A stretch of DNA of 64,000 nucleotides from a virus. A model generated the notes under the pieces. It was not told where the DNA came from. It did not search any database and saw nothing but the letters and a program-made list of their open reading frames with translations. The stretch is from the IMG/VR virus record IMGVR_UViG_3300023084_000004; one strand, 5' to 3'. This document shows positions 4,568-62,013 of the stretch, piece after piece (position 1 is the stretch's first letter; every line of letters starts with the position of its first letter). The position numbers and the translations under genes were made by a program.

Positions 4568-5247
4568 AAGCTTATATCTTAAAAATCAATACTCCTATCT
4601 CAACACAATATGCAAAAATATGTGCAGATAGTTGTGATAAAGTAGGTTTAAAAAGAGAATACGTTCAAGGTTATCAAAATATGACTGGACGTGCAGCTTG
4701 GTGTTTAACTGGTATTAAACAAAGTTTTTATGAACCTATAAGATATATAGCTAATCCTACACCTTCTCAAAAAGCAAATGCTTGTAGTGCAGGACATGGT
4801 AAAATATGGAAAATGATTGCAGAAGGTGATGATGATGTCGGTATTGTATTAGAACATGACGCTATCATATTGCATAAACCCAATATAGAAATACCTGATA
4901 ATTGCATTGTTGTATTAGGATATAAATTAACAGACCCATCAAGATATGATCATCAAAGAGCAGGTCCACCTGAAGAATTAATAGATATTGATGGACACGA
5001 AGGTGCGCATGCATATATGATGACAAAGAAAACTGCACAGTTTTTAGTAAATGAAATAGAACAAAGAGGCATTTTAGGTGCAGTAGATAATGCATATTTT
5101 ATTCGAGGACAACGACAAACAGCATTACCACTAAAAATTATGTCACCAACACCAGCTCTTGGTTGGTTAAGAGAATCAACAATCTGGTCACAAAGTGCTA
5201 ATGTTAACTATGAATTTATATCCAGTTTTTCAAAATATTATAAATAA
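4564..5247 (+). CDS. Glycosyltransferase family 25-like protein
   Basis: ACSAGHGKIWKMI...IVLEHDA and GAHAYMMTKKTA resemble GT25 motifs. Confidence 0.6.
   Translation: MKAYILKINTPISTQYAKICADSCDKVGLKREYVQGYQNMTGRAAWCLTGIKQSFYEPIRYIANPTPSQKANACSAGHGKIWKMIAEGDDDVGIVLEHDAIILHKPNIEIPDNCIVVLGYKLTDPSRYDHQRAGPPEELIDIDGHEGAHAYMMTKKTAQFLVNEIEQRGILGAVDNAYFIRGQRQTALPLKIMSPTPALGWLRESTIWSQSANVNYEFISSFSKYYK
5239..5246 (+). promoter_or_regulatory. T4-type late promoter
   Basis: TATAAATA about 40 nt upstream of the 785-aa ORF. Confidence 0.7.
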
Positions 5248-5284
5248 ACCAGAGTAGATTTAAATTTTAATTAGGATTTAATAA

Positions 5285-7642
5285 ATGAGTCAAACATTTC
5301 AAGAATTCTTGGATAGTGTATCGTCACTTCAGCTTGACGAGAAAACAACTGTGGCCGATCGAATCAGAGACTTAAGATCAAGATCAAAAGATGATGAAGA
5401 ACCTGTTGATGGCGAAAAACCAGCTGACAGTGAAGTTGATACAGACCAAGAACAACCAAATCCAGAACAAAGGGATAGAGTAAATCCCGATGACCCGTTT
5501 GCTGCCGAAAAAACACAAGACATGATGGATGATCTTGAAACAGCATTGGGTGATATTGCCTTAAAACTTAAAGCCGCAGAAAATATTAAAACAAATCCTG
5601 CATTAAGAAAAATCGGCAAGAAAAAATTAAATCCAAAGAATTATGTCAATATTAAACCTGTTGTAACCGAAGCACCACGCGGCGGTACAGCAGTTATCAG
5701 TTTTGGTCGTATGAATCCTGTGACAGTTGGTCATGAAAAATTGGTCAATAAAGTAATTTCTACTGCTTTGTCAATGGGTGGAACTCCGCTAATCTACTTA
5801 TCTCACTCCACAGATCCTAAGAAGAATCCACTCTCATACGACCAAAAACTTTTATTCGCAAAACGCGCATTCGGAACCAAGTTGATTGTTAAATCAAGAG
5901 CACGCACCATTATAGAGGTTGCTAAAGAATTACAACGTCAATATAAAGAACTTGTGCTCATTGTCGGTTCAGATCGTGTTAGTGAATTTGAGACACTACT
6001 TACCAAATATAACGGTAAGGATTTTACCTTTGATAAGGTATCTGTAATATCAGCAGGTGATAGAGATCCTGATGCTGATGACGTATCAGGAATGTCTGCT
6101 TCTAAAATGAGAAAAGCAGCTGCTGATGAAGACTTTGATTCTTTTAAGAAAGGACTTCCAAGAAAATTACAAAGTCAAGCTAAAGTTGTATATGACTCAG
6201 TAAGAGTTGGTATGGGACTTCAAGAAACAATGGAATTAGAATTCGAAGATTTTGATAACGAATTCTTAGATGAAATCTTTATGGATGAAGATTTAACTGA
6301 AGAGTTATTAGGCGAAGCACTTACACGTCAACAAAGACTCAAGCGCAAAATGTTAATGAAGCGTATGAGAAGTAAAATTCGTATGGGTAGAAGACGTGCA
6401 ATGAAAAGGGTTGCAACCGTTGAAGTAATCAAAAAACGTGCTCGTCGTTTAGTATATCGTATGTTGAAAAAGAGATTTGCAAAAGCAAATAGATATGCTG
6501 ATATGCCATATAGTGCAAGACAACGCATTGATGATCGTGTAGCAAGAATTCCTAAAAATAGAATTGAAATTCTTATGAGACGATTTATGCCTAAAGTAAA
6601 AGCGGCTGAAAGAGCAAGACTCGCTTCTAAAATCGCTTCAAAGAAACCAAAGAATCCTACGGTTCAAAAGAAAAAACCAGTAATTAAAAAAGTTGATACA
6701 TCTAAAGCTAAAAAAGAATCTTTAGATCAATTAGTTACTAATTACTTAAAAGAAAAAGTAGTTAATGGTAAATTAGATCCGTTATCACCAATGGGTAAAC
6801 AAAAACTTACTGGTCGAGAAGTTGCTCAGTATTATAGAGACAACCCTGCTGCAAAAAGAGCAGCACGAGATGAGAAGACAAAATTAGCAATTGAATTAGC
6901 TCTTGACTTAGCAGGTAATATGAATTACGCTATTAAAGAAATTGAAAAGATTAAAAAAGGATTATCTAGACATCCAGAAGTTAAAAAAGCTTTAAGATTT
7001 ACAAACGAAAATACAGAGAGTACATACAAAGAATATACTCTTGAACAAAGACTTTCAGAAGGTTCATCATATCATACTGGACTAGCAAAGTCAACTGCTG
7101 ATAAACGTAAAGCACAATTCAATAAACAAGCAAAAATGGCTGATGATAATCCAGATGCATATAAACCAGCACCTGGTGATGCAACTGCAGAAACAAAACC
7201 AAGTAAACATACTTCTAAATTTAAGAAAATGTTTGGTGAAACTAATTATGAACGAGCAGGTTTGAAAAAACCACACATGCTATTAGCACGCAATGGTTCA
7301 GTAGTTGTTGATAAACGGTTTAAAATTAATAAAAAAGGTTATGAAATAGAAGCAGAGCGAGAAGCAAAGCTTAAAGAATTATTAAGATTAGGGGAAGATC
7401 TTGAATTTGTATTCGAAAGTAATCCAGAAAAATCTCTTAGAAACAAAGCAGAAAAAACTGGAATCCCTTATGGTATTCTTAAAAAAGTATTTGACCGTGG
7501 AGTCGCTGCTTGGAAATCAGGTCATCGACCAGGAACAACTCCTACTCAATGGGGATTGGCAAGAGTTAATAGTTTTGCAACTGGTGGAAAAACACAAAAA
7601 ACAACCGATGCTGACTTGTGGAAACAACATAAGGGCAATTAA
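5285..7642 (+). CDS. Multidomain protein: cytidylyltransferase-like (HIGH) domain plus several small modules; probable virion/internal protein
   Basis: SFGRMNPVTVGHEK (HIGH-like), LIVGSDR, GMSASKMR (KMSKS-like); C-terminal KKVFDRGVAAWKSGHRPG...QWGLARVNSF domain; N-terminus MSQTFQEFL. Confidence 0.75.
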   Translation: MSQTFQEFLDSVSSLQLDEKTTVADRIRDLRSRSKDDEEPVDGEKPADSEVDTDQEQPNPEQRDRVNPDDPFAAEKTQDMMDDLETALGDIALKLKAAENIKTNPALRKIGKKKLNPKNYVNIKPVVTEAPRGGTAVISFGRMNPVTVGHEKLVNKVISTALSMGGTPLIYLSHSTDPKKNPLSYDQKLLFAKRAFGTKLIVKSRARTIIEVAKELQRQYKELVLIVGSDRVSEFETLLTKYNGKDFTFDKVSVISAGDRDPDADDVSGMSASKMRKAAADEDFDSFKKGLPRKLQSQAKVVYDSVRVGMGLQETMELEFEDFDNEFLDEIFMDEDLTEELLGEALTRQQRLKRKMLMKRMRSKIRMGRRRAMKRVATVEVIKKRARRLVYRMLKKRFAKANRYADMPYSARQRIDDRVARIPKNRIEILMRRFMPKVKAAERARLASKIASKKPKNPTVQKKKPVIKKVDTSKAKKESLDQLVTNYLKEKVVNGKLDPLSPMGKQKLTGREVAQYYRDNPAAKRAARDEKTKLAIELALDLAGNMNYAIKEIEKIKKGLSRHPEVKKALRFTNENTESTYKEYTLEQRLSEGSSYHTGLAKSTADKRKAQFNKQAKMADDNPDAYKPAPGDATAETKPSKHTSKFKKMFGETNYERAGLKKPHMLLARNGSVVVDKRFKINKKGYEIEAEREAKLKELLRLGEDLEFVFESNPEKSLRNKAEKTGIPYGILKKVFDRGVAAWKSGHRPGTTPTQWGLARVNSFATGGKTQKTTDADLWKQHKGN

Positions 7643-7662
7643 AAAGACAGGGATAACAAATA

Positions 7663-8148
7663 ATGAAAACTGTAAAAGGATCAATAAGAGAAGCATTAGC
7701 ACAGATTGCTACTTATAATAAACAACCTATTGCTGAACAAGACCTCGAAAAAGAATTAAATCAACATACTGAAGGCTCATTCTATGGCCGAGACGACTTA
7801 GTCAAGAAATGGTCTACACCTAAAAAGGATAGACACCTGTATATTAAGTTAGCTAAAGACGATGCAAGTGGACATCATCGTGCTTCAATGAAGCGTAAAG
7901 GTAATGAGAAGAAGATTGCTGACCTTAAGAGGCAAGGATATAAAGAAGTACCATTTGAATCAAAAGAAGAATTACAACAATGTATCGATGAAAGAGAAAC
8001 AGATAAATACGGCAATCCAAAACTAAGTGATGCCGATAAAGATAAGATTGGTAAACTCAGACAAAAAATTAAAGATCACGAAATTTTAGCTAATAGACTA
8101 AGAGACGAAATTAGTCAAATTAAAAAGAACGCAGGGATTGATAACTAA
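7663..8148 (+). CDS. Hypothetical protein (late block)
   Basis: 161-aa ORF in a tightly packed operon. Confidence 0.7.
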   Translation: MKTVKGSIREALAQIATYNKQPIAEQDLEKELNQHTEGSFYGRDDLVKKWSTPKKDRHLYIKLAKDDASGHHRASMKRKGNEKKIADLKRQGYKEVPFESKEELQQCIDERETDKYGNPKLSDADKDKIGKLRQKIKDHEILANRLRDEISQIKKNAGIDN

Positions 8149-9485
8149 TGAAAAAATTAACAGACTTAATTAACGAAAGTGGAGCAGGTTTCTGGGGAAC
8201 TACTTCAGCAAAAGATAAGCTTGCCTCAGATACTCCCGGCCAAGGTGTTAAGAAGAAAAAATTAACAGACATAGCTATAGAAAATTTTAATATGAATTTA
8301 GTAGAAATGACTGTATCATTTAAGTTTGAAACTCTTCAAGACGCAGCAAAAGCAGAAAGACGTGCAATGGCTATGGGTTTAGAAACAAGTTCAGAAAAAA
8401 TGAAAGGTCAAAAAGTTTGGTTGTTACATTTAACTGGTAAGTATACAGATATTACGAAATGGCTTAAGAGAACTCAACCTGAAAAACCAGTAGAAGAAGA
8501 ATTAAAACCAACAAGTAAAACAAAAACGATTAGTCCTCGTGATTATAAAATTAAAGGTCATACCGTGCGCGTAAAACCACAAAGTGGTAAGTTTCATTTA
8601 AGTATTGACGGAAAAGAAATTGGCGTATATAGTTCAGAAAAAAGTGCAATGCAAACTGCATCAAAACATATTTACGTAGGTTTAAAAGAAGAAAGAGATG
8701 ATTTTGATAGTCCTATTACTTCAAAAGATATTAAAATGGCAATCGGTATTGCTAATGACCCAAGATATAAGCAGGGTAATTATAGTGCAGCTTATCAAAA
8801 AATCTCAAGATTGAAAAAAGATTTACAAAAACATCCTCGAGTTAGAGACGCTTTAAGACAAGCGAATGAAAACTTCGATTTCGACATATTAGACGAAGGC
8901 GCAGTTGCTGTTTCTACTGTAGAAAAAGAAATTAGAAGCAATGGTGGAAAAATCATAAGACCAGAAACTAACGATAAGAAAATCACATTTACATATAATG
9001 GTGGTAAGAGAACTGTTCCTGTAGATAGAGGGTTTGTTCAAGATCACTATTATATGCAATTACAAAAAATGTTTGAAGAAGTTGAAATTGAAGAAGCAAC
9101 CTTAGCTGCTCGTAATGGTCAAGTTCTTGATCATATGCTCGGTTTACTTAAGACTAAGCTTATGAAAGATATGGAAAACGGCAATTTATCAGACGCTGAA
9201 GTGGTGGCTAAACTTGTTAAGAGACGTATTGAAAATGATACCAAACGTAAAGGTCACGCTAGATTAAAAAACGAAGATAGTCAGTGGGGCGTAGAAAATA
9301 GATTTATGAGATACGATAGTGAAAAATTAAAAGATATGCGTAAAAAGAAATTAAATTCTATTACAGCTTTAAAAGGACAGCATAGTACTATGACAGCTTT
9401 AGGAGGTAAGAATCCTAGAGGTGAAGAAATAAGAGAACTAGAAAAAGATATTAAAATGATCGATGCTGCGCTACAATCAAAATGA
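8148..9485 (+). CDS. Hypothetical modular protein, probable internal head protein
   Basis: 445 aa; MKKLTDLINES N-terminus; internal x-x-E/A or G motifs. Confidence 0.7.
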   Translation: MKKLTDLINESGAGFWGTTSAKDKLASDTPGQGVKKKKLTDIAIENFNMNLVEMTVSFKFETLQDAAKAERRAMAMGLETSSEKMKGQKVWLLHLTGKYTDITKWLKRTQPEKPVEEELKPTSKTKTISPRDYKIKGHTVRVKPQSGKFHLSIDGKEIGVYSSEKSAMQTASKHIYVGLKEERDDFDSPITSKDIKMAIGIANDPRYKQGNYSAAYQKISRLKKDLQKHPRVRDALRQANENFDFDILDEGAVAVSTVEKEIRSNGGKIIRPETNDKKITFTYNGGKRTVPVDRGFVQDHYYMQLQKMFEEVEIEEATLAARNGQVLDHMLGLLKTKLMKDMENGNLSDAEVVAKLVKRRIENDTKRKGHARLKNEDSQWGVENRFMRYDSEKLKDMRKKKLNSITALKGQHSTMTALGGKNPRGEEIRELEKDIKMIDAALQSK

Positions 9486-9856
9486 AAACCTTTAGAGAAT
9501 TTTTAGAAGAAAAGTTAAAAGTCTCTGATGGACTCGGAGCTTGGATTGATGATTTTATGAAATCAGATGCTCCACAATTCAAAGATGCTGACAAAGAAAA
9601 ACGTCGAGATATGGCAATAGCAGCCTTTACTGCTGCAGGTGGTAAACTTGACGAAGGATCTGAATCGTGGGAAGATGGATATAAGCGTAGAGTTGTAAAA
9701 ACGACCAAACCAGAACATAAAGAAAAAGGTTATAATTGGAGAATTAAAGGTAAAGATAAAGCACATCTTACTATTAAACTCTATAAGAATAAACCTTCAC
9801 AAGAAGAATTTAACAAACAAATGAAACGTGTTGCTGGACACGAGTTCGGAGGATAG
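9482..9856 (+). CDS. Hypothetical protein with capsid-targeting-like N-terminus
   Basis: MKTFREFLEE. Confidence 0.75.
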   Translation: MKTFREFLEEKLKVSDGLGAWIDDFMKSDAPQFKDADKEKRRDMAIAAFTAAGGKLDEGSESWEDGYKRRVVKTTKPEHKEKGYNWRIKGKDKAHLTIKLYKNKPSQEEFNKQMKRVAGHEFGG

Positions 9857-9864
9857 AAATAAAA

Positions 9865-11058
9865 ATGAAACGTTTTAAAAGTTTTAACGAAGCACAAGTT
9901 GATGATATTTCTGTTGGTGTTAAAAAGAAATTACCTGCAGGAGTTCAAGGTGATCCAAACTTAAAGGGATTTGCATATAACGAAAAAGTAAAGTTTAAGT
10001 TTAAAGGTAAAAATCCTTTTAAAATAAACTTAGAAGAAGTTGAATTAGAAGAAGGTCGTGGTGATGTTCTCAAATCTTTACAATCTCTTGTTAAGCGCGG
10101 TGGATATGATAAAGAAGATTTTCAAAAAGCATATGACCTTTATAGATCAGCAAAATACAAAGATCTTAGAAAGCATATCTATGGTTTAGATACAGATCCT
10201 AGTGAAACATTAGCAGCAATTATTGCACAAGGTGATGTTAAAGCGTTTACGAGTATGTATCCAAGAGCAAAAGCCGGTGATTACTTAAGAAGCATTGTTA
10301 TTCAACATGGTGAAAGTGTTGAAAACACATTTGATTCTATCGTTGAAGATATGATGGTTGAAATTGAATTAGATGAAGCACTATCTCCTAAAGAGAAAGA
10401 AAAGCGTCTACTCATGATTAAGAAAGCTGTTGAAAAACTCAATAAAGCAAATATTGATAAGATTAAAAAACAAGCCATGAGAGACATGAAAGCATCTGGT
10501 ATGTTTGACGATGTTATCGACGAAAATATTAAGGGCGGTGTTGATTCTTACATGGCTTTACAAAAGGCAAAAGAAAAAGCTAAAAAGATGGGTAAAGTTT
10601 GGAATCAAATGGGTCAGAACGAAAAAGATAGATTTATTGATAAAGAAATGAAAGATGCTGGTTACGAGAAAAAACCTGGCAATCAAATGTATACAAAAAT
10701 ACCAACTGATAAAGAAAAAGAATTTGCCGCTAAAGTAAGAGATGCTGATAAATCAGTAAATAAGATGTCCGATGATGACAAGGTAGCTTATTATAGTAAA
10801 AACACAAGTCTTTCTACAGCTGGTAAAGATATTTCTGCTCAAGGTAAGATTAAGATTGAAATAGCAAGACTAGAAAAACAAATGGATTCGATAGAGAAGC
10901 TCGCTCAAGAAGCCGATCGAAAAGCTGCTGCAGCTGAAGAAAAAGGTGACGATACAGCATTCGAAAAATTTCAAGATGAAGGAGAATATCATCTTGAAAG
11001 AGCTATGAAAATACAAAGTAAAATAGACGATTTAAAAGACGAATTAAAGAACAAATAA
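9865..11058 (+). CDS. Hypothetical modular protein, probable internal head protein
   Basis: MKRFKSFNEA; LEE-G and LDE-A motifs; coiled-coil C-terminus. Confidence 0.7.
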   Translation: MKRFKSFNEAQVDDISVGVKKKLPAGVQGDPNLKGFAYNEKVKFKFKGKNPFKINLEEVELEEGRGDVLKSLQSLVKRGGYDKEDFQKAYDLYRSAKYKDLRKHIYGLDTDPSETLAAIIAQGDVKAFTSMYPRAKAGDYLRSIVIQHGESVENTFDSIVEDMMVEIELDEALSPKEKEKRLLMIKKAVEKLNKANIDKIKKQAMRDMKASGMFDDVIDENIKGGVDSYMALQKAKEKAKKMGKVWNQMGQNEKDRFIDKEMKDAGYEKKPGNQMYTKIPTDKEKEFAAKVRDADKSVNKMSDDDKVAYYSKNTSLSTAGKDISAQGKIKIEIARLEKQMDSIEKLAQEADRKAAAAEEKGDDTAFEKFQDEGEYHLERAMKIQSKIDDLKDELKNK

Positions 11059-11062
11059 GACG

Positions 11063-11443
11063 ATGAAAGGATTTCGCGAGTTTATCAACGAATCAAACTT
11101 TGGCTTATATGAAGGAGTTACAGTTCCTTTAGAACAACCAATGATTGAATTTGAAGAAGAACAAGAGCCAGAATTAAATAAACCAAAACGTAGTTCTGGT
11201 AAAAAGAAATACGTTGTTTATGTAAGAGATCCTCAAACAGGTAATGTTAAAAAGATTAATTTTGGTGATGAAAAAGGCGGATTAACTGCAAAGATTAATG
11301 ATAGAGATGCCGCACGGTCTTTTGCAGCTCGTCATAATTGTGATACAAAAACAGATAAAATGAGTGCAGGTTATTGGGCATGTCGTTTACCAAGATATGC
11401 TAAATCACTTGGACTTAAAGGTGGCGGCAGTTACTGGTGGTAA
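11063..11443 (+). CDS. Conserved T4-like-phage protein with capsid-targeting-like N-terminus
   Basis: MKGFREFINE; KKINFGD...ARSFAARHNC...SAGYWAC motif. Confidence 0.75.
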   Translation: MKGFREFINESNFGLYEGVTVPLEQPMIEFEEEQEPELNKPKRSSGKKKYVVYVRDPQTGNVKKINFGDEKGGLTAKINDRDAARSFAARHNCDTKTDKMSAGYWACRLPRYAKSLGLKGGGSYWW

Positions 11444-11826
11444 TTATGAAAAATATTTTAATAGGATTATTTGCAGTATTAGCAGTAGGATGTTCATCTA
11501 TTGGTAAATTTGTACCAAGTGAATTTGATAATGTTGAATATGGCAAATTAGTAGAGCTCAATGTAATATCATTATCTCATGGTTCAACAGAAGAGTGGTG
11601 TAAAAGTTCAATGATTAGCCAAATGAATTATAGAGCTGAATATTTACACACTTATGCAAAGCATAGATTAAACGATAATATTGTAGAAATATATAAAGGT
11701 ATACACGATCTTACACTAGAATTAAAAGAAAAAGAAAATCCTAGTGAAGCATATTGCAAAATTAAAAGAACTAATATACACAACGTGACTAATAACGTAT
11801 TAAGTGTTTTTGGAGATAGGAAATGA
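11443..11826 (+). CDS. Putative lipoprotein
   Basis: MKNILIGLFAVLAVGC lipobox-like signal (track start 11437). Confidence 0.6.
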   Translation: MMKNILIGLFAVLAVGCSSIGKFVPSEFDNVEYGKLVELNVISLSHGSTEEWCKSSMISQMNYRAEYLHTYAKHRLNDNIVEIYKGIHDLTLELKEKENPSEAYCKIKRTNIHNVTNNVLSVFGDRK

Positions 11827-12041
11827 GCTTAGATAATTGGCAAGCACAAACAGAACAAAAAGTAATAGAATATAAAAGTCTATTAGAAGATGGCGATTTA
11901 ACTCAAGCAGAATACGAAGAATTAGTACAAGACTTGCTTGATATATCAAAAATTGAAGCTGATCTTGAATTAGAAGAAAATAAAATTTTGGCTGGAAAAA
12001 TAATTGATGGAATTAAGCTTTTAGCAGGCTTAATTAAGTAA
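11823..12041 (+). CDS. Hypothetical protein
   Basis: 72-aa ORF overlapping the previous stop. Confidence 0.65.
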   Translation: MSLDNWQAQTEQKVIEYKSLLEDGDLTQAEYEELVQDLLDISKIEADLELEENKILAGKIIDGIKLLAGLIK

Positions 12042-12048
12042 AGTAAAT

Positions 12049-12306
12049 ATGAATCCTTATCTTGACGTTAATGATCGTCGAGTATTTTTTGCTAATAGAC
12101 CAAACGAAGAATTTGTTTGGCATAGAGACGATGAAACAAGAGAAATAGAAATTCTCGAAGGTGATGGTTGGCAATTTCAATGGGAAGGTGCTTTACCTTG
12201 GCTTTTAAAACCAGGTATGAAATTTACTATAAAAGAAAATGAATACCACAGAATCATTAAAGGAGTTAATGATTTAATAATTAAAATAACTCCAAAAGAT
12301 AAATAG
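12049..12306 (+). CDS. Small cupin-like protein
   Basis: WHRD...E...G-x-GW and YHRIIKG resemble the two cupin metal motifs. Confidence 0.55.
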   Translation: MNPYLDVNDRRVFFANRPNEEFVWHRDDETREIEILEGDGWQFQWEGALPWLLKPGMKFTIKENEYHRIIKGVNDLIIKITPKDK

Positions 12307-12336
12307 TTTAATAATAATTTTATAAGGGAGACTGAA

Positions 12337-12978
12337 ATGTCATTTAAAGAAAAAATTGATATGGTAATGGAGGCGGCAATTCGCAAACCATTAGTTGAAG
12401 CTAATTTAAAAGTTAGCCACTTCACTGGTAAAATCGCAGATAAGAAAGGTTTTACTATGAAAAAGATTGGGAGTTCTAATCCTGGCGCTGTGGTAATGTT
12501 ACAAGGTGATGAAAAAGCTATTGTTGCTTATGCTAAAAAATATTTAGGTGCAGACGATGATGCTGAAACAGTTAGTGATGTTCAAGATGATGTATATCAT
12601 CCTCAAGCAGGTATTATATTATACAAAGACCAAAAGGATGAAGCTAAGAAAATGGACCCAGTCGGTCAAGCTGATGCAGATATCGACAATGATGGTGATG
12701 TAGATGATTCAGATGAGTATCTTAAAAAAAGAAGAGCTGCAATTAGTAAAGCAATGAAAAAAGAAGGCTATGAAAGTGTTGATGATACAGTCATTGCTAA
12801 AGAAATGAAAAAGCTTCATGCAAGTAATTGTTCAAAGGATGAAATGTATAAGCAACTTAATGCACAATACGGATGTTCTAAAGAAAAATTTGAACAGCTT
12901 TATGCATCTAATTGTATGGGCGAATCACTCACTGCAGAGAGACTTAAGACTAGAGCTCTTAGCAAAAGCTTTAAATAA
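12337..12978 (+). CDS. Hypothetical protein with EF-hand-like DxDxDG loop
   Basis: DADIDNDGDVDDSDEYLKKRR; GATAAATA late-type motif at 12298-12305. Confidence 0.7.
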   Translation: MSFKEKIDMVMEAAIRKPLVEANLKVSHFTGKIADKKGFTMKKIGSSNPGAVVMLQGDEKAIVAYAKKYLGADDDAETVSDVQDDVYHPQAGIILYKDQKDEAKKMDPVGQADADIDNDGDVDDSDEYLKKRRAAISKAMKKEGYESVDDTVIAKEMKKLHASNCSKDEMYKQLNAQYGCSKEKFEQLYASNCMGESLTAERLKTRALSKSFK

Positions 12979-13019
12979 AATTAATATATAATTAATTAGT
13001 AAAAAATATGGGAGATATT

Positions 13020-13256
13020 ATGAAAAAACTAATTGAATGGCTAAAATCTTTTTTTGGTGTTAAAACCGAAGAAGTAAAACCTACTCCAAAAAAGAGAGTA
13101 GTAAAAAAGGCTGCTAAAGCCGATGGAAAAGTTACATGCGATTTCGGCAAGTTAACAAAAGCACAATTGCTTAAAGAAGCAAAACACAGAGGTGTTAAAG
13201 TTAAATCAGGTGCTTTAAAGGCTGAAATTCTAGAACAATTAAATCAATTGAAATAA
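13020..13256 (+). CDS. Small basic protein with C-terminal HeH/SAP/Rho-N-like helix-extension-helix
   Basis: LTKAQLLKEAKHRGV...LKAEILEQL; GGAG RBS before ATG 13020. Confidence 0.55.
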   Translation: MKKLIEWLKSFFGVKTEEVKPTPKKRVVKKAAKADGKVTCDFGKLTKAQLLKEAKHRGVKVKSGALKAEILEQLNQLK

Positions 13257-13298
13257 TTTTTGTTATAATTTAACGTTAAATTAAACAGGAGAAATAAC

Positions 13299-13601
13299 AT
13301 GGCACTATGGGGAAAAACAGACGCTCCAGCTAGCGTACCTAAGTGGCTCGAGGACGATGCTAATAACACTAATAAGTCCAATGATAAAGACAACGCAGTA
13401 TTCGTTGACTTAACAGAGGCAGGTGTTGCATCTAACAGAGCTAAAGGTCTCACTGGTCCAGGTTGGTGGTTATACCACACTTCAAATGGAAGACACTTTG
13501 CAGAATGCTTGGTACCTATGAAGGTATCACAATCAGATGCAGGTGACTTGGGTGTTACTGGTAACACAGCAGTTGAAGATACAATCGTAGCCGACAGTTA
13601 A
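13299..13601 (+). CDS. Hypothetical protein
   Basis: Strong RBS (AGGAG); 100 aa. Confidence 0.75.
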   Translation: MALWGKTDAPASVPKWLEDDANNTNKSNDKDNAVFVDLTEAGVASNRAKGLTGPGWWLYHTSNGRHFAECLVPMKVSQSDAGDLGVTGNTAVEDTIVADS

Positions 13602-13632
13602 TAATAATTAACAACATAAACCTTTTTTCATT

Positions 13633-14007
13633 ATGAAGTTAACAGAATCAACCTTTCTGCTATATGCAATGAAGCATTACGACAACCCTCAGTGTACTGA
13701 GATGTCAGAATTTGAAGAAGATATGAAGAGGTTTCAATACCTCAGAAAATTATTCGGAAGATATAGATCAGACGGTGAACTTAAAGAAAGGTTGATATTA
13801 AACCATCTCATTGTATTATACAATGTGTTTGGTCCAATTGGAACTAATATGTTGTTTATGCGGTTACACGAGTTTCATGAATATTTAAAGCCTTTTGTGG
13901 AATATTTAAATTTCATGCCTCAAGTAATCATATATGACGACATTAGTATTAATTCTGATAGTATAATTTCAGATGAATTAATTACACAAAGGTTAAAGGA
14001 AATCTAA
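13633..14007 (+). CDS. Conserved T4-like-phage hypothetical protein
   Basis: YAMKHYDNPQC...FEEDMKRFQYL...ERLILNHLIVLYNVFG pattern recalled from marine T4-like phages. Confidence 0.75.
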   Translation: MKLTESTFLLYAMKHYDNPQCTEMSEFEEDMKRFQYLRKLFGRYRSDGELKERLILNHLIVLYNVFGPIGTNMLFMRLHEFHEYLKPFVEYLNFMPQVIIYDDISINSDSIISDELITQRLKEI

Positions 14008-14678
14008 TGGTAGTAGATTTATTTTTAGTTTTCAGTTTTATTAAAAGGCTTGTAAAGCCGTTTAAAAACTGGCCAGCTTATAAATTAGGAATCATAGACG
14101 GAAAAGGTAATATCCTTATTCGTCGTAGAGATTTTACTAAGGCTGAGCAGCGCAAAGCTTTTGGTATATTTGACCAACTAATTTTAAATCTTAAAAAGCT
14201 ATTAGCTAAATTACCAGGTGGTTCTACTAGACTTGCTACTTATGCTGCAGCTCTATGGTTAATTAAAGAATCAGAAAATTATAGAAATCAAAATGGTGTC
14301 TTATTAGAAGACGTTGATTTATCTGAAGATTTTCATAATTCTTTCTTAGACCGCTTCGTTGAAGAGTATGGAGATATACTCGCAAATGAAGAAATTAAAT
14401 TAGAAGAAGCTAAAAAGAAAGTTTCTCCTAAAGATAGAAAAGAACTCAGTAAATTGCTTATCGATTATAAAGTTCAAGGTAAGACAGGCACTGAAATACG
14501 AACAGCTGTAGAAGATTGGCTTAGACAAAAAGGTTATATGGACGAAGAACCAACTGTTAATGTTGGTGGTGGTGCTATTGCAGGATTAGGAGTTGGAGCA
14601 CAAGGTGAACCTGGCGTATCTAAGAAATCTCAAGGTAAATATAAAAAGAAAAATTTTATTGACTTTATGTCAAGATAG
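14007..14678 (+). CDS. Conserved T4-like-phage hypothetical protein
   Basis: FIKRLVKPF..WPAYKLGIID.KGN N-terminus; NVGGGAIAGLG tail. Confidence 0.75.
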   Translation: MVVDLFLVFSFIKRLVKPFKNWPAYKLGIIDGKGNILIRRRDFTKAEQRKAFGIFDQLILNLKKLLAKLPGGSTRLATYAAALWLIKESENYRNQNGVLLEDVDLSEDFHNSFLDRFVEEYGDILANEEIKLEEAKKKVSPKDRKELSKLLIDYKVQGKTGTEIRTAVEDWLRQKGYMDEEPTVNVGGGAIAGLGVGAQGEPGVSKKSQGKYKKKNFIDFMSR

Positions 14679-14688
14679 AGGTAAAACA

Positions 14689-15144
14689 ATGCAACAACAG
14701 AATAAAGACAATGTATTTGAACAATTAAAAATCGATGAGGGAGTAGTAAATGAAATCTATCTCGACCATCTCGGCTTACCTACCTTTGGAGTCGGTCACC
14801 TTATCCTCGAAAGTGATGAGGAATTCGGAAAACCAGTTGGTACAAGTGTTGACGAAGAAAGAGTCAGGACGTGTTTCGACAGAGATCTTGAAACTGCCAT
14901 CGGAGAATGTCACGCTCTATACGGAGAAGGGGAATTTGGAGATTTCCCAGGAGAGGTCCAAGAGATCGTGGTTAATATGATGTTCAACATGGGTCGTACT
15001 CGTTTGAGTGGATTTAAAAAGTTTAATGCTGCTGTATTAGAAGGTGATTGGAAAACTGCTGCAGTTGAAGGTAGAGATTCTAAATGGTATCGTCAAGTGA
15101 CAAACAGAGCAGAGCGCCTGATGTCACGAATGGAAGAAGTTTAA
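14689..15144 (+). CDS. Endolysin, T4-lysozyme (GH24) family
   Basis: EQLKIDEG..IYLDHLGLPTFGVGH catalytic E-D-T; NMMFNMG; S.WYRQVTNRA; start moved from 14593 to ATG 14689 (GAGG RBS). Confidence 0.9.
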   Translation: MQQQNKDNVFEQLKIDEGVVNEIYLDHLGLPTFGVGHLILESDEEFGKPVGTSVDEERVRTCFDRDLETAIGECHALYGEGEFGDFPGEVQEIVVNMMFNMGRTRLSGFKKFNAAVLEGDWKTAAVEGRDSKWYRQVTNRAERLMSRMEEV

Positions 15145-15178
15145 TAAATAAAAAAGATAATCTGTTAAAGGAATTAAA

Positions 15179-15787
15179 GTGTCATTGCATAAAATAATTC
15201 AACACGCGATTGATAACGATCCGTTAAAAATGAAAGAAGCATTCGATGAAGAAATGACTTCGCGTTTACGTGTTGCATTAGAAAATGCATATAATAGTAT
15301 TAATGAAGCAGAAGTCGAAGATGATGAAGAACCAGTAGATGATATGGAAGAGCCATTGGACATGGAACCAGAAATGGAAATGAGACAAGTGGCAATTCAA
15401 GTATCTGGTGCTAAAGATCTTAAAAAGATATTAGAAGCTTCAAATGAAAAAGGTAAAGTATCTTTAAGTGAAATGTTAGGTTTTGATTCTGGCGATGAAG
15501 ACCCTGAATATAAAGGTACAGATGCTGTTGTATATCCATCTTCACTTATAGATGAGGAAGGCTTAGAAGAAATTCAACAAAAATGTCAGTACCAAACTAA
15601 ATTATCAGAATTCACCGCAAAACGTATTGCGATACATTTAAAAACTGGTGGAAAAGTCTCTAACTGGAATCCAGATCAAGACAACGATAAAGAGATTGGG
15701 TTTGACGAATTATATTATAACGCTTTATTAACAAATACAGTTGAACCTAATGAATCAGGTTTTATATACAGAGCTAAGTTAATTTAA
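15179..15787 (+). CDS. gp67-like N-terminal domain fused to an extra domain
   Basis: First ~40 aa paralogous to the adjacent 15803 ORF. Confidence 0.55.
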   Translation: MSLHKIIQHAIDNDPLKMKEAFDEEMTSRLRVALENAYNSINEAEVEDDEEPVDDMEEPLDMEPEMEMRQVAIQVSGAKDLKKILEASNEKGKVSLSEMLGFDSGDEDPEYKGTDAVVYPSSLIDEEGLEEIQQKCQYQTKLSEFTAKRIAIHLKTGGKVSNWNPDQDNDKEIGFDELYYNALLTNTVEPNESGFIYRAKLI

Positions 15788-15802
15788 ATAGGAGAAATAG
15801 AA

Positions 15803-16069
15803 ATGTCTATTGAAAAAATAATTGCCGAAGCAATTGATAATAATCCTCTTAAAATGAAAGAGGCTTTTGAAGAAGAGATGAATGCTAGAATTCGTGCCTC
15901 TTTAGAAGAAAAATATAATGAAATGGCTGAAGGTAAAGTCAAAGAAGAAGACGAAGACGAAGACGAAGAAGATGAGTCTGATGAAGACGAATCTGATGAG
16001 GAAGAAGTCGAGTCTGACGACGAAGACGAAGACGAAGACGAGAAAGAAGAGTCTAAATCTAAAAAATAA
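15803..16069 (+). CDS. gp67: Prohead core protein gp67-like
   Basis: Short helical N-terminus (IAEAIDNN..MKEAFEEEMNARI) plus poly-D/E tail, the T4 gp67 architecture. Confidence 0.6.
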   Translation: MSIEKIIAEAIDNNPLKMKEAFEEEMNARIRASLEEKYNEMAEGKVKEEDEDEDEEDESDEDESDEEEVESDDEDEDEDEKEESKSKK

Positions 16070-16098
16070 CACTGCATTCTTATGCAAAGGAATAATCA

Positions 16099-16482
16099 GT
16101 GTTTAATCAGATATTTTTAACGTTGATTCTCGTGCTTGGTGGCGCGAGTTATTGGCTATGGAATGAAAATCAGACATTAAAAGAAAATAATGTCAAATTA
16201 GAATATGCGATTGAAGAGCAAGCTGCTGCATTCAACGCAATGAAAGAATCGTATGAGAAACAAGGTGAAGCATTAAATAACCTTTCTCGTGCGAACGCTG
16301 CTATTGAAGCAGAAAAAGATCGTTATCTAGATATTTTCAGAAGACACAATCTCGATAGGCTCGCTCTTATGAGGCCGGGCCTTATTGAGACGCGTATTAA
16401 TAATGGTACTAAAGCAGCATTTGAGGAGATTGAGAATGATACTAAAGCTATTAGCGAGCTCTCTAGCACTTCTTCTGATTAG
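16099..16482 (+). CDS. Putative inner-membrane spanin (Rz-like)
   Basis: N-terminal TM helix plus coiled coil; overlaps a downstream lipoprotein; near the endolysin. Confidence 0.65.
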   Translation: MFNQIFLTLILVLGGASYWLWNENQTLKENNVKLEYAIEEQAAAFNAMKESYEKQGEALNNLSRANAAIEAEKDRYLDIFRRHNLDRLALMRPGLIETRINNGTKAAFEEIENDTKAISELSSTSSD

Positions 16483-16975
16483 TGGATGTTCAATTCTTGG
16501 TTTAGGTACCAAAGAAGTTGAAATTGTAACTAAGCCAGTTCGTATAGAAATCATCCAACCTACATTACCAAGACCTATAAATTTAGAAGAACCTAAATGG
16601 TATGTAGTATCTGAAGCAGTTATAGCAAACCCATGTAAACAAATTCCAAGACTTGATGATCAGGGCAATCCTGTATTAAATGATGATGGAACTCCGCAAA
16701 CAACACGACCTAAAACGTGTGCATTAGAAGATAGAGATAATCCAGAGTGGCCAGAAGGATATACCTATTTAGATAGATTCATGGAAGATATCAAAGCCGC
16801 TAATGGTGGAGACGTCCTCTTTGTAGCCACTACAATTAAAGATTATGAGTTAATGTCAGCCAACATTCAAGAGCTCCGTAGGTACATCAGAGAGCTCGGA
16901 GAGGTGGTTGTGTACTATAGGAACGTTACAATTAATGACGAACCTGGTGCTGGTTTAGCTATAGAAAAAGATTAA
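16436..16975 (+). CDS. Putative outer-membrane spanin lipoprotein (Rz1-like)
   Basis: MILKLLASSLALLLISGC lipobox; Pro-rich; GAGGAG RBS before ATG 16436. Confidence 0.65.
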   Translation: MILKLLASSLALLLISGCSILGLGTKEVEIVTKPVRIEIIQPTLPRPINLEEPKWYVVSEAVIANPCKQIPRLDDQGNPVLNDDGTPQTTRPKTCALEDRDNPEWPEGYTYLDRFMEDIKAANGGDVLFVATTIKDYELMSANIQELRRYIRELGEVVVYYRNVTINDEPGAGLAIEKD

Positions 16976-17074
16976 AAAAACTTATAATATAATTCTTAAT
17001 AGAAGCCCATTTTCAAATAAATACAATTGTCAACATAATGCACTAAGTGATAATTTTTTTAGCTTGGAGGCACG

Positions 17075-17605
17075 ATGTCAGACGACACCGTTTCACATAT
17101 CAAAACAGACATAGCTCTTATAAAAAACGACCTCAAACAAATTGAAAGATTTTTTGATAAGGTTGATTCTGTTGTAGATGAAATCACTGCTTTATCGAAA
17201 GGCATGGCTGTACAACAGCAAATTATTGAGAGGTTTGATCAGAAACTCGATTACTTAGAAGAAAAAATCGACACTCAGTCACGCATCAATGTTGAGACTA
17301 AATTTGCTTTAAAAGAAGAACTTGACGATCACAAGCAGAACTTTAGAAGGGATATGCTTAAAGCTATGGAAGACGCAAGAAATAAACACTCCGAAGTCAA
17401 CGAGCGTAGCCGTGAATGGCATGAAGATAGACACAAAGAAACAATACGACTTATTGAAAATATTGCAAAAGATTTACAAGATAAGATTGATAACCAAGAA
17501 GTTCGTATAAGAGGAATTGAAAACCTTAAATGGTGGTTGATTGGTGCAATCGCAGTAGCCACATTTGTAGTGCAATTCTTAGATATCTCATTATTTCATA
17601 AATAA
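17075..17605 (+). CDS. Coiled-coil protein with a single C-terminal TM helix (XhlA/holin-like candidate)
   Basis: LKWWLIGAIAVATFVVQFL at C-terminus; follows the lysis genes. Confidence 0.5.
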   Translation: MSDDTVSHIKTDIALIKNDLKQIERFFDKVDSVVDEITALSKGMAVQQQIIERFDQKLDYLEEKIDTQSRINVETKFALKEELDDHKQNFRRDMLKAMEDARNKHSEVNERSREWHEDRHKETIRLIENIAKDLQDKIDNQEVRIRGIENLKWWLIGAIAVATFVVQFLDISLFHK

Positions 17606-17643
17606 CAGTTGACATTTCACATAAACTAGTATATAATAACAAT

Positions 17644-18261
17644 ATGATTAGGTTCCAAGAATATCTAGAAGAAAAAAAAGGTTCAAAAGGATTGACAATT
17701 TTTGATATTGATGATACAATGTTTATATCAAAAGCTAGTGTATTAGTACGTGATACTAAAACAAATAAGATTGTAAAATCTCTTACCCCTAAAACTTTTA
17801 ATAGTTATAAATTAAAAAAGGGTGAAGAGTATGATTATTCAGAATTTAAATCATCTAAATTGTTTTTTCAAACAGCAACACCCATTGGTAAAATTATAGC
17901 CAAAGCTAAAGCAATAATAAAGAATGCAGTAAAATCTGGTAGTAAAGTTATTATTGTAACAGCTCGTTCTGATATGGACGATAGAGATCTTTTTCTTAAA
18001 ACGTTTCAATCGCATGGTATAGACATTAAAAATGTTCATATCCATAGAGCTGGTAATCTTGGTAGTGGTTCTTCAGCTGAAAACAAAAAAGTCATATTCC
18101 GTAATTTTTTAAAGACTGGTGAATATGGTAGAATAAGACTATTTGATGATCATCTTGAAAATTTAAAAGCTCTCCTCGACCTTAAAAAAGACTTTCCAGA
18201 AGTCGATTTCTTTGCTTATAAGGTTGATCCAAAATCTGGTCGTACACAAACCGTTAAATAA
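17644..18261 (+). CDS. HAD-superfamily phosphatase (PNKP phosphatase-like)
   Basis: IFDIDDT motif I, IVTAR motif II, LFDD motif IV. Confidence 0.8.
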   Translation: MIRFQEYLEEKKGSKGLTIFDIDDTMFISKASVLVRDTKTNKIVKSLTPKTFNSYKLKKGEEYDYSEFKSSKLFFQTATPIGKIIAKAKAIIKNAVKSGSKVIIVTARSDMDDRDLFLKTFQSHGIDIKNVHIHRAGNLGSGSSAENKKVIFRNFLKTGEYGRIRLFDDHLENLKALLDLKKDFPEVDFFAYKVDPKSGRTQTVK

Positions 18262-18264
18262 TAG

Positions 18265-18293
18265 TTGACATCTATACCAACCTATGGTATAAT
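18265..18293 (+). promoter_or_regulatory. sigma70-type promoter for the primase-thyX-nrd operon
   Basis: TTGACA-17-TATAAT. Confidence 0.75.
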
Positions 18294-58608: not shown

Positions 58609-59931
58609 TTAGAATAAGTTAGAAACAATAACTTTTCTGTAGTACTGGTTAAGGTCTGCAGTAAGAGCACCAAGACCTTGAGCTGTACCATGAGCAAATG
58701 GATTAGCAACCATGCCATAACGAGTTTTGAACCCGATTTTTGGCTGGAAGCTATTCTCACCAACTGCTCTAACCATTTGTAATGGAACGTATGGGCAATA
58801 GAATAAACCTGCGTCAAAAGCAGATGAACCTTTGTACCCAACTACTAAGTAGTTTGCGCCTGCGAATGGATCAACATACACTCTGAAACGTCCGTTAAGA
58901 ACACCAGCAAAAGTATTACCAGTATCATCAACTTCTAAAGAGTTGCTGTTAAGAGCAGGAGCGTAATCCAATACACCAGCCATTTGCAATGCAGAAGCTA
59001 CGTCTGAAGAACAAATAACGATGTTACCTTTCCCTCTACGTGTTCCTTTTGCAATAGCGTTAGCTTCTTGTTCAATCTGGAACATAAGTCCTTTGAACTT
59101 CTCAACTGACCATCTGCCGTTAGCATCAACGTCTAAGTCGAAAGTACCTGGAACTGCTGTTCCTGTTGCACCTGGAAACGCTGTGCTATAGATTGTTCTA
59201 ACAACTTCTCTGTTGATTTCTGTTAAGATTTCAGACTGAAGAATGTTAGCAAGTTCTGTTTCAGCGTCTAAGCCATGAACTGCTCTTAAGTCTTGAGCAA
59301 GTTCAGTTGTGTATTCAGCTTTCAAAGCACGTGTTTTCGCTGATACTGTAACTTTCTCAATTGAGAATGCCATTTCAGCAAAGTTTGTACCTTGACCATC
59401 ACCTAGAGCTTCTGCAGCTGCAGTAGTCATACCAGTACCAGTTGTAATTAACTGAGTATTAGCATTTGGTAATGTGTTAGCGTGAGCTCCTGTACCTGAG
59501 AAGTCTGTATCAGCTTCGTTGTACATAGCTTCAGCGCCACCTTGTGAACCATACTTAGCTCTCATCGCGAAGATAAGACCTGTAGGACCAGTCATAGGCT
59601 GAACACCACAGATATCGTAAGCGATAAGGTTAGGAATAGCTCTTCTTACTAATGAGATCAAAATAGGGTCGTAACCAGCTGTTGGACCAGCTGCTGCATT
59701 TCCTGGAGATACACTTGCAGAGAAACCACCTGTACCAGCGTCGTTAGCTGGTGCTTCAGAAAGAAGACTTGTCATGTTTGCAGACAAGTCACCTGTTTCA
59801 GCAAGTGCTCTTTCAGTGTTTTCAAGAATAGTCGCAGTTACGGCTTTTCTATGTTGATCGTTAATTGGTGAAAAAGATTCGTGATCCAAAATTGGAGTCC
59901 ACTTTTCCACTAAGGCTTGATAATTAGACAT
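58609..59931 (-). CDS. gp23: Major capsid protein gp23
   Basis: DICGVQPMTGPTGLIFAMR, EMAFSIEK.TV.AK.RALKAEYT.ELAQDL.A.HGLDAE, YCPYVPL, FQPKIGFKTRYG. Confidence 0.98.
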   Translation of the reverse strand: MSNYQALVEKWTPILDHESFSPINDQHRKAVTATILENTERALAETGDLSANMTSLLSEAPANDAGTGGFSASVSPGNAAAGPTAGYDPILISLVRRAIPNLIAYDICGVQPMTGPTGLIFAMRAKYGSQGGAEAMYNEADTDFSGTGAHANTLPNANTQLITTGTGMTTAAAEALGDGQGTNFAEMAFSIEKVTVSAKTRALKAEYTTELAQDLRAVHGLDAETELANILQSEILTEINREVVRTIYSTAFPGATGTAVPGTFDLDVDANGRWSVEKFKGLMFQIEQEANAIAKGTRRGKGNIVICSSDVASALQMAGVLDYAPALNSNSLEVDDTGNTFAGVLNGRFRVYVDPFAGANYLVVGYKGSSAFDAGLFYCPYVPLQMVRAVGENSFQPKIGFKTRYGMVANPFAHGTAQGLGALTADLNQYYRKVIVSNLF

Positions 59932-59981: not shown

Positions 59982-60983
59982 TTAATTATTCTTTTTTCTG
60001 TCGAGTGCTTCAACAAGAGCATTAATAGAAGCGTAATCAGAAGCTGGTTTTTTAACTTCCTGTTCTTCTAGAATAATTTCGTCTTCTTCGACTTCTTCTA
60101 CTTTAGGTGCGGCAACTTTGCCTTCGCTAAAGAAAGATTCTTTGATTACTTGAAGATTATCTGCATAAGCTTCTAAATCTTCAACATCGAGTTTTTCAGA
60201 AAGTACTTTAAATCTTTCTTTTTGATTTTCAGAAAGACCTTCAGTCATTTCTTCGAAAACTCTTTCAGCTTTAATAGAAGAAATTGCTCTTTGAAGCTCA
60301 ATGTTCTCGTTAACGAGTTCATTTGATTTCTCTTCTAAGTCTGAAACTTGTGTTTCCAAGTCAGCTACTACGTCGAATGTTTCGTCGTCAATAGTAACAT
60401 TGTGTTCTGCGAAAAGAGTTTTAAGACCATTCATTAAAGACTCTGCCATTTCTACTTTAATGCCAGCTTCTACAGCGATCTTGTTCTCTTCCATCCACTC
60501 GCCAACTACGTAATCAAGATACTTGTCTACATTTTCAACAACATCTTTCATACGAGTTTCAATTGACTCGCTTAATTCTACTTCAAGCTTTTCTTCAAGC
60601 TCTGAACGAATAGCTTCTACTTGGGTTTTGACCTGTTCGTTTACTGCTGCTTCAAAAACAACTTCGATTTTGTTTTTGAATTCTTCAGAAAGTTCTTCTC
60701 CATCGATGATAGAAGCAATAGATTCTGCTACAACAACTTCTTCTACAGTTTCAGTTTCTTCTTCAACTGCATCTTCAGCGATTGCTACTTCTTCTGTTTC
60801 TACTTCTTCAGCTGTAGGAACTTTTTCTCCGGCCTTTTCTTGACCAGGAGTTTTTACGTCATGCTCTTTAGGCTTGTCGTCTTTTTTAGGCTTTCTGTTA
60901 CCTTCACCACCCTCAGGGGCTTGAGGTGTAGGGACAGTTGAAATACCGTCGTCAGCAACGAATGTATTTTTGTCGTCTGCCAT
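59982..60983 (-). CDS. gp22: Prohead core scaffold protein gp22
   Basis: LSEEFK.KI..VFEAAV, VDKYLDYVV.EW, acidic coiled coil; located between gp21 and gp23. Confidence 0.92.
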   Translation of the reverse strand: MADDKNTFVADDGISTVPTPQAPEGGEGNRKPKKDDKPKEHDVKTPGQEKAGEKVPTAEEVETEEVAIAEDAVEEETETVEEVVVAESIASIIDGEELSEEFKNKIEVVFEAAVNEQVKTQVEAIRSELEEKLEVELSESIETRMKDVVENVDKYLDYVVGEWMEENKIAVEAGIKVEMAESLMNGLKTLFAEHNVTIDDETFDVVADLETQVSDLEEKSNELVNENIELQRAISSIKAERVFEEMTEGLSENQKERFKVLSEKLDVEDLEAYADNLQVIKESFFSEGKVAAPKVEEVEEDEIILEEQEVKKPASDYASINALVEALDRKKNN

Positions 60984-61773: not shown

Positions 61774-62013
61774 TTAAGGAATACCATTAGCATTCCTATT
61801 ATCATAGAAATTTTTTGATAGTTCTCCCCGCTCTGCGGTTTCTCCTACCTTTCTAACCTTTACATAGGTGTATTGAGCATTTCCACCTGTAGGAGTATAT
61901 GTTCTTACTCCTAAAGCTGTAGTGCCATTAGCATCTGAATAAGTATCTGATGCTGTAGCGGCATTGTCGTATTCCCAAATTCCGTTAGAACCGAGAACAG
62001 AAACCCATGCCAT
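61774..62013 (-). CDS. Small hypothetical protein in the head cluster
   Basis: 79 aa; stop/start overlap with the upstream gene. Confidence 0.65.
   Translation of the reverse strand: MAWVSVLGSNGIWEYDNAATASDTYSDANGTTALGVRTYTPTGGNAQYTYVKVRKVGETAERGELSKNFYDNRNANGIP

Follow-up and report, generated by a model that had tools for sequence, protein, structure and literature searches.

Candidate T4-type capsid-targeting leaders on a late gene block of an uncultured marine myovirus

Introduction

The stretch of DNA considered here (the window, 64,000 nucleotides) forms the end of the 137-kb IMG/VR record IMGVR_UViG_3300023084_000004, which is judged 64% complete and whose G+C content is 33%. It belongs to an uncultured marine myovirus of the T4 superfamily in which genes of the T4 head-assembly pathway are present. 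Several genes of a block at 5285-18261, together with one gene of the head cluster, begin with a short peptide, referred to below as the leader, that resembles the capsid-targeting sequence borne by phage T4's internal proteins. An initial annotation had proposed that at least six proteins, some of them large or enzymatic, are loaded by such leaders into the head and injected with the DNA.

Marine T4-type phages are among the most abundant viruses of the ocean, and the capsid-targeting sequence is textbook knowledge for T4 and its close coliphage relatives. In T4, it is known from the internal proteins IPI, IPII and IPIII (Mullaney & Black 1996, as reviewed in PMC9026906 and PMC3012670). Full-text literature searches found no paper that ties this sequence to marine T4-type phages.

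The leader-bearing genes

The genes of 5285-11443 run head to tail behind a T4-type late promoter box, TATAAATA, which lies at 5239 as initially annotated. The seven N-termini first reported were each found at their starts, and another, weak candidate, that of a 161-amino acid (aa) protein, was absent from that list (Table 1). Leaders are not spread evenly over the range proposed for the block: most genes of 11446-17605 are devoid of them and encode a lipoprotein, a head protein, lysozyme, spanins and other products. The block ends at the primase gene (18325). Comparison of the window (140-57495) with the stored copy of the genome disclosed 25 single-base differences, for example at 9832, 9862 and 14489, none of which falls within a leader.

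Table 1. Leader-bearing genes, head genes and promoters of the window (slash, cut site; pI, isoelectric point; nt, nucleotides)
Feature	Position	Strand	Characteristics
T4-type late promoter box TATAAATA	5239..5246	+	38 nt before the ATG at 5285
785-aa fusion protein	5285..7642	+	Leader MSQTFQEFLD, shifted by one residue; phrog_3041, 2.8e-96; DUF5824, 2.9e-15
161-aa basic protein, weak candidate	7663..8148	+	Begins MKT; I-R-E at 8-10, no aromatic residue at 4/7; pI 9.1
445-aa basic orphan	8148..9485	+	Leader MKKLTDLINE; Leu at 4 and 7; I-N-E at 8-10
124-aa small basic protein	9482..9856	+	Leader MKTFREFLEE, best match to T4; pI 9.6
397-aa highly charged protein	9865..11058	+	Leader MKRFKSFNE; Phe at 4 and 7; F-N-E ending at 9, Alt-like
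126-aa basic protein	11063..11443	+	Leader MKGFREFINE and acidic linker before the domain; phrog_7595
Promoter region of the HAD gene	17597..17637	+	Late-type CATAAATA at 17597-17604, then perfect TTGACA-17-TATAAT at 17609-17637
205-aa HAD-superfamily phosphatase (putative)	17644..18261	+	Leader MIRFQEYLEE; DxDxT; PF03767, 2.7e-6; phrog_415
gp23-type major capsid protein	58609..59931	-	L-S-E/A at residues 57-59, aligned with the T4 gp23 maturation site
gp22-type scaffolding core protein, expected docking partner of the leaders	59982..60983	-	phrog_237, 1.3e-71
gp21-type prohead protease, expected to remove the leaders	61049..61732	-	phrog_207, 3.7e-75
376-aa acidic protein, in the T4 gp67/gp68 slot (portal-protease interval)	62013..63143	-	Leader MKNFKDILSE; pI 4.9

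Similarity of the leaders to those of T4

Residues 2-10 of all open reading frames (ORFs) of the 137-kb record (151) were scored against the leader of IPII and IPIII. The reference leaders were taken from the T4 record, in which IPII and IPIII share 10 residues and IPI has 19 residues ending in I-T-E. The highest scores were those of the 124-aa (31), 126-aa (25), 376-aa (19) and 205-aa (18) proteins. Because only 1.8e-4 of 39,874 internal 9-mers score 18 or more, 0.03 N-termini would be expected at this level and four were seen; no internal 9-mer scores as high as the leader of the 124-aa protein. In the 785-aa protein the core of the leader is shifted by one residue, and its score is about 25 by hand when this shift is allowed. 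Lower values were obtained for the 161-aa (14), 445-aa (11) and 397-aa (9) proteins. The latter two are part of the one operon and retain hydrophobic residues at 4 and 7 as well as a site terminated by Glu. Phe or Tyr is found at both 4 and 7 in the 124-, 126-, 205- and 397-aa proteins and, after the one-residue shift, in the 785-aa protein. The corresponding residues are Phe4 and Ile7 in the 376-aa protein, Leu4 and Leu7 in the 445-aa protein and Val4 and Ser7 in the 161-aa protein, which thus lacks this feature.

A test independent of T4 gave a concordant picture. The cut-site motif [LI]xE (Leu or Ile, any residue, Glu) closes at residue 10 in 8/151 ORFs compared with about 2 at other positions, and seven of these eight, all of them within the block or the head cluster, are candidates or a neighbour in the block. 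Six of the eight candidates have the motif closing at residue 10, the others being the 397-aa protein (F-N-E ending at 9) and the 785-aa protein (L-D-E ending at 19). Candidates account for 7/20 ORFs of the block and 1/131 elsewhere (Fisher p = 2e-6). With a fixed criterion the motif was seen in 4/20 block ORFs and in 0/50 ORFs of the early region (p = 0.005), and is thus commoner in the block than in early genes. A scan of every ATG, GTG and TTG in the 137-kb record revealed no additional strong leader, and no tail gene of the record was found to carry one.

The bodies behind the leaders are mutually unrelated, apart from one module common to the 785-aa and 445-aa proteins. Moreover, synonymous codons differ among the leaders, and six of the eight leader genes lack an individual promoter box. 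The unrelated bodies and differing codons therefore indicate that the likeness was selected at the level of the peptide. A spread of the leaders by recombination as a DNA cassette was rejected on account of these codon differences. The presence of T4-type, non-random leaders is confirmed.

It could be argued that N-termini of this kind are shared without any targeting function, through AT-rich codon bias, a preference at initiation or a cassette of promoter plus start. The genome is indeed AT-rich and Met-Lys starts are frequent among its ORFs. Nevertheless, the motif is absent from the 50 early-region ORFs, which have the same base composition, and the differing codons and the missing promoter boxes leave no DNA cassette in common. 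This explanation is highly improbable, and the conservation of the leader in relatives speaks against it as well.

Leaders in related phages

Leaders were found widely in 68 related contigs that hold a homologue of the 785-aa protein (1037 ORFs). N-termini scoring at least 18 were observed in 63/1037 ORFs and belong to at least 18 unrelated families. In parallel, [LI]xE ending at residue 10 was counted in 94/1037 ORFs, against roughly 5-45 at other positions. Among cultured phages, leaders are present on syntenic genes of Melnitz, HTVC008M and the cyanophages S-RIM8 and S-SM1, the census of the last covering the genome on either side of its middle (50-130 kb).

The leader of the HAD gene is kept in 120/120 closest homologues, 14 entries with an upstream start having been realigned. 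Across these 120 leaders, positions 2, 3, 5 and 9 are variable, while the residue class is conserved at 4 (F/Y), 6 (E/D), 7 (F/Y), 8 (L/I) and 10 (E, with a single Lys). T4 genetics has assigned residues 4 and 7 to targeting and residues 8 and 10 to processing (PMC9026906), and the substitution pattern of the HAD leaders agrees with this assignment. The strongest conservation thus falls on exactly the residues that matter in T4, which would hardly be seen if the shared N-termini had no targeting function.

The domain of the 126-aa protein points in the same direction. It was found in many phages outside the T4 group, and in Roseobacter phage CRP-902 and Pelagibacter phage Aegir, both of non-T4 type, the protein starts at the first residue of the domain and has no leader. 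In T4-type phages, a leader and an acidic linker are added. Judged from these two non-T4-type phages, the leader appears to go with the phage type, and an origin of the N-termini without targeting function is largely refuted by the controls taken together.

In the nearest contig, L008, a leader-bearing P-loop gene (GGPGSGKS; 1283-2326) and a DUF6267 gene (2326-3564) sit upstream of the region homologous to the start of the window. These two extra leader genes would fall beyond the end of the present contig, so that the true leader-bearing set is probably larger than counted. DUF6267 had also been considered as the family of T4-GC15, a virion protein of S-SM1, and this was dropped since the S-SM1 record puts T4-GC15 among the baseplate genes.

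Fusion and fission of the leader-bearing modules

In the 785-aa protein, the leader is followed by an acidic linker, an HxGH nucleotidyltransferase domain (about 130-320), a basic module (346-455), the module shared with the 445-aa protein (E = 2e-7) and a C-terminal DUF5824. The basic module exists as a separate gene of 113-159 aa with its own leader in about 15 relatives. In BLAST alignments the cut site of these separate leaders falls onto an internal L-G-E (342-344) of the 785-aa protein, which holds four [LI]xE sites clustered between 314 and 344. In addition, among the internal stretches of the whole genome, its residues 579-587 rank second in likeness to the T4 leader. In Melnitz gene 18 (L004, 5915-7867), a 650-aa fusion, the nucleotidyltransferase and DUF5824 are joined to the domain of the 126-aa protein, and a relic leader-like stretch, YYEFFNE, is kept at the last junction.

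These observations suggest one tag per polypeptide, the leader behaving as a portable element. Modules that relatives encode as separate genes, each with a leader, are joined here. As the fused modules keep L-x-E at their junctions, the 785-aa protein may be cut up inside the head in the manner of a polyprotein.

Promoters and timing

In the 137-kb record, 9/11 copies of TATAAATA are intergenic and lie 29-61 nt 5' of a start in the correct orientation. These copies are mostly found before structural genes (protease, sheath, tail), and also before the genes of the 785-aa and 376-aa proteins. As a bare word TATAAATA is unenriched (5 seen, 9.8 expected) and hence only its placement is informative.

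Perfect TTGACA-N16-18-TATAAT promoters of the sigma-70 type occur 13 times in the window compared with 0.18 expected, all on the plus strand (166-57810), and none was found in 195-17608. They mark early regions, for instance at 18265-18293, 41204-41232 and 53971-53999, and several have a common extended spacer (TTGACATTTGC...ATGATGTATAAT). One of them stands before the HAD gene together with a late-type CATAAATA. This gene is therefore not purely late, and it may be made both early and late.

Between the leader operon and the HAD gene, a predicted lipoprotein (11446-11826, signal peptide ending in LAVGC) directly follows the operon and is conserved in contigs L008 and L009. A lysis cassette (14689-16975) contains a T4-lysozyme-like gene (14689-15144), an Rz-like i-spanin gene (16099-16482) and, overlapping the latter, an Rz1-like o-spanin gene with a lipobox (16385/16403-16975). 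It also spans two adjacent paralogues (15179-15787 and 15803-16069) that have about 45 N-terminal residues in common (KII..AIDN.PLKMKEAF.EEM) followed by acidic stretches. The second has an extremely acidic tail of Asp and Glu, and a family search of the first found nothing.

The head-gene cluster and the 376-aa gene

The order of the head cluster on the minus strand is capsid protein, scaffold, protease, a 79-aa gene, the 376-aa gene and portal. With its counterparts in Sinorhizobium phages phiM12 and phiN3, OM43 phage Melnitz and T4-like cyanophages, the major capsid protein shares 62-66% identity, compared with 39% for T4 gp23. Its cut site, L-S-E/A, aligns with L-T-E/A of T4 gp23 and is of the same motif type as the end of the leaders. 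From this alignment the cutting specificity of the protease appears conserved. The gp22-type scaffold contains 11 [LI]xE sites (3.3 per 100 aa compared with 1.07 genome-wide), and the gp21-type protease is similarly rich in them (3.5 per 100 aa). A TATAAATA box is located upstream of the protease gene (61763-61770), and the 376-aa gene has its own (63177-63184).

The post-portal gene carries a leader in 69/69 related loci that hold both portal and protease, whereas the length of its body varies from 123 to 561 aa. No match to the 376-aa protein was obtained by tblastn against phage records. Because it is acidic and occupies the gp67/gp68 slot, this protein looks more like a component of the prohead core, comparable to gp67 and gp68, than like injected cargo.

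The 79-aa gene that adjoins the protease gene (61774-62013, minus strand, start MAWVSV) has look-alike small genes in related contigs (L008, 3564-3797; L012, 10015-10236), where they adjoin DUF6267 or nucleotidyltransferase genes. They may form another small head-associated family.

The head cluster also bears on the address that the leader encodes. A tag directing proteins to tail or baseplate, to the cell membrane or to a replication compartment, with a likeness to T4 that arose by convergence, is very unlikely. It could account for the S-SM1 virion proteins of the syntenic block that have no leader, and published proteomics does not distinguish head from tail. Nevertheless, the tag closes with the cut motif of the head protease, the one also found at the capsid maturation site. 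Furthermore, a leader gene lies inside the head cluster in all the loci with both portal and protease, and tail genes of the record are free of leaders.

Products of the leader-bearing genes

Two of the block proteins resemble enzymes, in line with the proposal that some of the cargo is large or enzymatic. The nucleotidyltransferase domain of the 785-aa protein was modelled with a predicted local distance difference test (pLDDT) score of 87.6, and its nearest folds are PPAT and NaMN/NMN adenylyltransferases (template modelling score 0.6-0.7, by target). T-x-G-H and M-S-A-x-K-x-R, which answer to the N-terminal (H/T)xGH and C-terminal ISSTxxR-like motifs, are invariant in 31 homologues. With these motifs and a Rossmann-like fold, the domain is assigned to the HxGH (cytidylyltransferase-like) nucleotidyltransferase superfamily; PDB and Pfam matches based on sequence alone were too weak for a substrate to be named. 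In the 205-aa protein, a putative HAD phosphatase, the PF03767 match is just above the cut-off, and a D-I-D-D-T motif, conserved in homologues, directly follows the leader.

The 161-, 445-, 124-, 397- and 376-aa proteins gave no Pfam, PHROGs or NCBIfam match, and megablast of the block against phage records found none either. Neither a family nor a fold could be proposed for the 445-aa protein, its model being poor and an ESM Atlas search giving sub-threshold matches only, and no close relative of it was found in viral contigs. A 76-aa homologue of the 124-aa protein with its own leader is present in relatives, and a leader of the F-N-E-E style, as in the 397-aa protein, also starts nucleotidyltransferases there. 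Without their leaders, the seven block proteins have a pI of 8.2-9.9 and contain 17-23% lysine plus arginine (genome, 9.8%). At 1.3-1.9 per 100 aa, [LI]xE sites are close to the genome average in them.

Virion proteins of cyanophage S-SM1

In purified virions of S-SM1, 41 proteins were detected, and a putative cytidylyltransferase, T4-GC190, was remarked on (PMC3037559, Sullivan et al. 2010). Table S8 of that study gives 25 peptide counts for T4-GC190 and 18 for the portal, and also contains GC1453, GC1454, GC1455, GC425 and GC426 (PMC3037559). In the S-SM1 record these six correspond to SSM1_188, 190, 191, 192, 195 and 197, which lie between helicase/MazG genes and primase, that is, in the same slot as the block of the window, which also ends at primase. 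Six virion proteins in a syntenic slot suggest that the block as a whole encodes virion proteins. The leader is clear in SSM1_190, the nucleotidyltransferase, and weaker in SSM1_192.

Proposed mechanism and its weighing

Since late genes here begin with the head-loading peptide of T4, their products are probably packed in the virus particle. There is good reason to believe that the leaders of five strong members (the 785-, 124-, 126-, 205- and 376-aa proteins) are capsid-targeting sequences of T4 type that are removed by the protease. The 161-, 445- and 397-aa proteins are probably further members. The loading of at least six proteins, as first proposed, is therefore likely for the five strong ones and less firmly based for the three others. 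It had also been claimed that the set is much larger than in T4, and this does not stand: T4 also loads Alt, gp67 and gp68 by N-terminal propeptides (PMC5694885), so that five to eight proteins are not a much larger set.

In the proposed mechanism, these five to eight proteins would each bear a propeptide of the T4 capsid-targeting type, 9-19 residues long. Its hydrophobic or aromatic residues 4 and 7 would dock the cargo onto the gp22-type scaffolding core during prohead assembly. After closure of the shell, the gp21-type protease would cleave after the Glu of [LI/F]-x-E at 8-10 or, in the 785-aa protein, at L-D-E 17-19, as in T4 IPI. The basic mature proteins of the block would remain beside the DNA in the head, as the internal proteins of T4 do, and would probably leave with it at infection, while the acidic 376-aa protein would act in the prohead core as gp67 and gp68 do. 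By analogy with T4, the cargo might thus be injected and might serve anti-defence or takeover. This is an extension of a known mechanism and not a new one.

Several points weigh against this scheme. Three of the eight leaders (161-, 445- and 397-aa proteins) lack significance on score alone. The 785-aa protein has Asp and Ser in place of the cut-site Glu of T4, and its 19-residue reading depends on the analogy with IPI; it does have L-D-E at 17-19, the length of the IPI leader, and its orthologue in the nearest contigs L008 and L009 keeps the shifted leader. The HAD gene is directly preceded by a perfect promoter of early type. In S-SM1, four of the six virion-detected block proteins are without a clear leader, which would make the leader one route into the virion and not the only one. 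A protein detected in virions need not lie inside the head, and the published proteomics contains no N-terminal peptides. Finally, cleavage, copy number, position in the head and ejection are inferred for this phage.

The leaders could also target the prohead while most of the proteins serve as core or scaffold and are chopped and expelled like gp22, gp67 and gp68. This would suit the acidic 376-aa protein, whose body varies in length and whose gene occupies the gp67/gp68 slot, as well as two orphans of high charge and poorly predicted fold, the 397-aa and 445-aa proteins. Moreover, the post-portal gene family does not figure among the virion proteins listed for S-SM1, S-PM2 and Syn9. On the contrary, the block proteins are basic and have far fewer [LI]xE sites than scaffold and protease, and the orthologous nucleotidyltransferase is abundant in mature S-SM1 virions (25 counts). 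In addition, two of the block proteins appear to be folded enzymes, with catalytic motifs conserved across the 31 homologues. Such a fate is therefore unlikely for most of the set, and retention of the basic block proteins in the head is preferred.

Relation to known systems

The closest parallel to the leader-bearing proteins is the T4 internal proteins IPI-III. They have in common a leader of 10 (IPII/III) or 19 (IPI) residues with aromatic residues at 4 and 7 and an [LI]xE cut site, basic mature proteins with unrelated bodies, late-type promoter boxes, a gp21-type protease and a gp22-type scaffold. The present set differs in coming from a distant marine lineage, in including large multi-domain proteins and enzymes and in having no IPI-III homologue. 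Furthermore, its genes form one operon between replication genes whereas those of T4 are scattered, and packaging and ejection are here assumed by analogy.

T4 Alt, an ADP-ribosyltransferase, offers the precedent of a large enzyme that is injected after gp21 has removed a propeptide ending in F-D-E, and the leader of the 397-aa protein ends alike in F-N-E. No ADP-ribosyltransferase domain is present here; an HxGH nucleotidyltransferase and a HAD phosphatase are predicted instead. The 376-aa gene resembles the genes of gp67 and gp68 in its place between portal and protease, its acidic product and its N-terminal site of protease type. However, its product is much longer, has no detected sequence similarity to them and starts with a leader of the internal-protein type.

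Like the 785-aa protein, whose residues 134-316 are homologous to it (45-49% identity), T4-GC190 of cyanophages (PMC3037559) is encoded in the slot before primase and has a leader of this type; it was detected in S-SM1 virions. The cyanophage protein is about 385 aa long and lacks the extra modules fused in the 785-aa protein. In the parts of PMC3037559 consulted, virion detection is given and no mention of internal proteins or prohead was found. As for giant phages, the ejection proteins of phiKZ, 201phi2-1 and SPN3US are likewise numerous head-internal proteins processed after Glu by a gp21-related protease. Nevertheless, their propeptides are mostly longer than 100 residues with the motif A/S-x-E (PMC5694885), and those considered here are short and of T4 type.

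Significance

A wider reading is that marine T4-type myoviruses, among them cyanophages, pelagiphages, OM43 phages and uncultured kin, share a conserved head-addressed kit that is injected pre-made, the leader also acting as a polyprotein linker that lets cargo modules be fused, split and exchanged rapidly. The kit would comprise the HxGH nucleotidyltransferase, the HAD phosphatase, DUF6267, the P-loop protein and small basic proteins, and would reprogram nucleotide or cofactor metabolism or blunt defences before phage genes are expressed. This reading is tentative and somewhat doubtful at present.

The mechanism itself is not new, and cultured relatives allow a direct test of the prediction. 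Should the leaders function as they do in T4, they would explain the 'cytidylyltransferase' reported in cyanophage virions in 2010 and would provide a sequence rule to predict the capsid-carried proteins of uncultured T4-type phages. The conserved enzymes may then act in the first seconds of the infection of Synechococcus, SAR11 or OM43.

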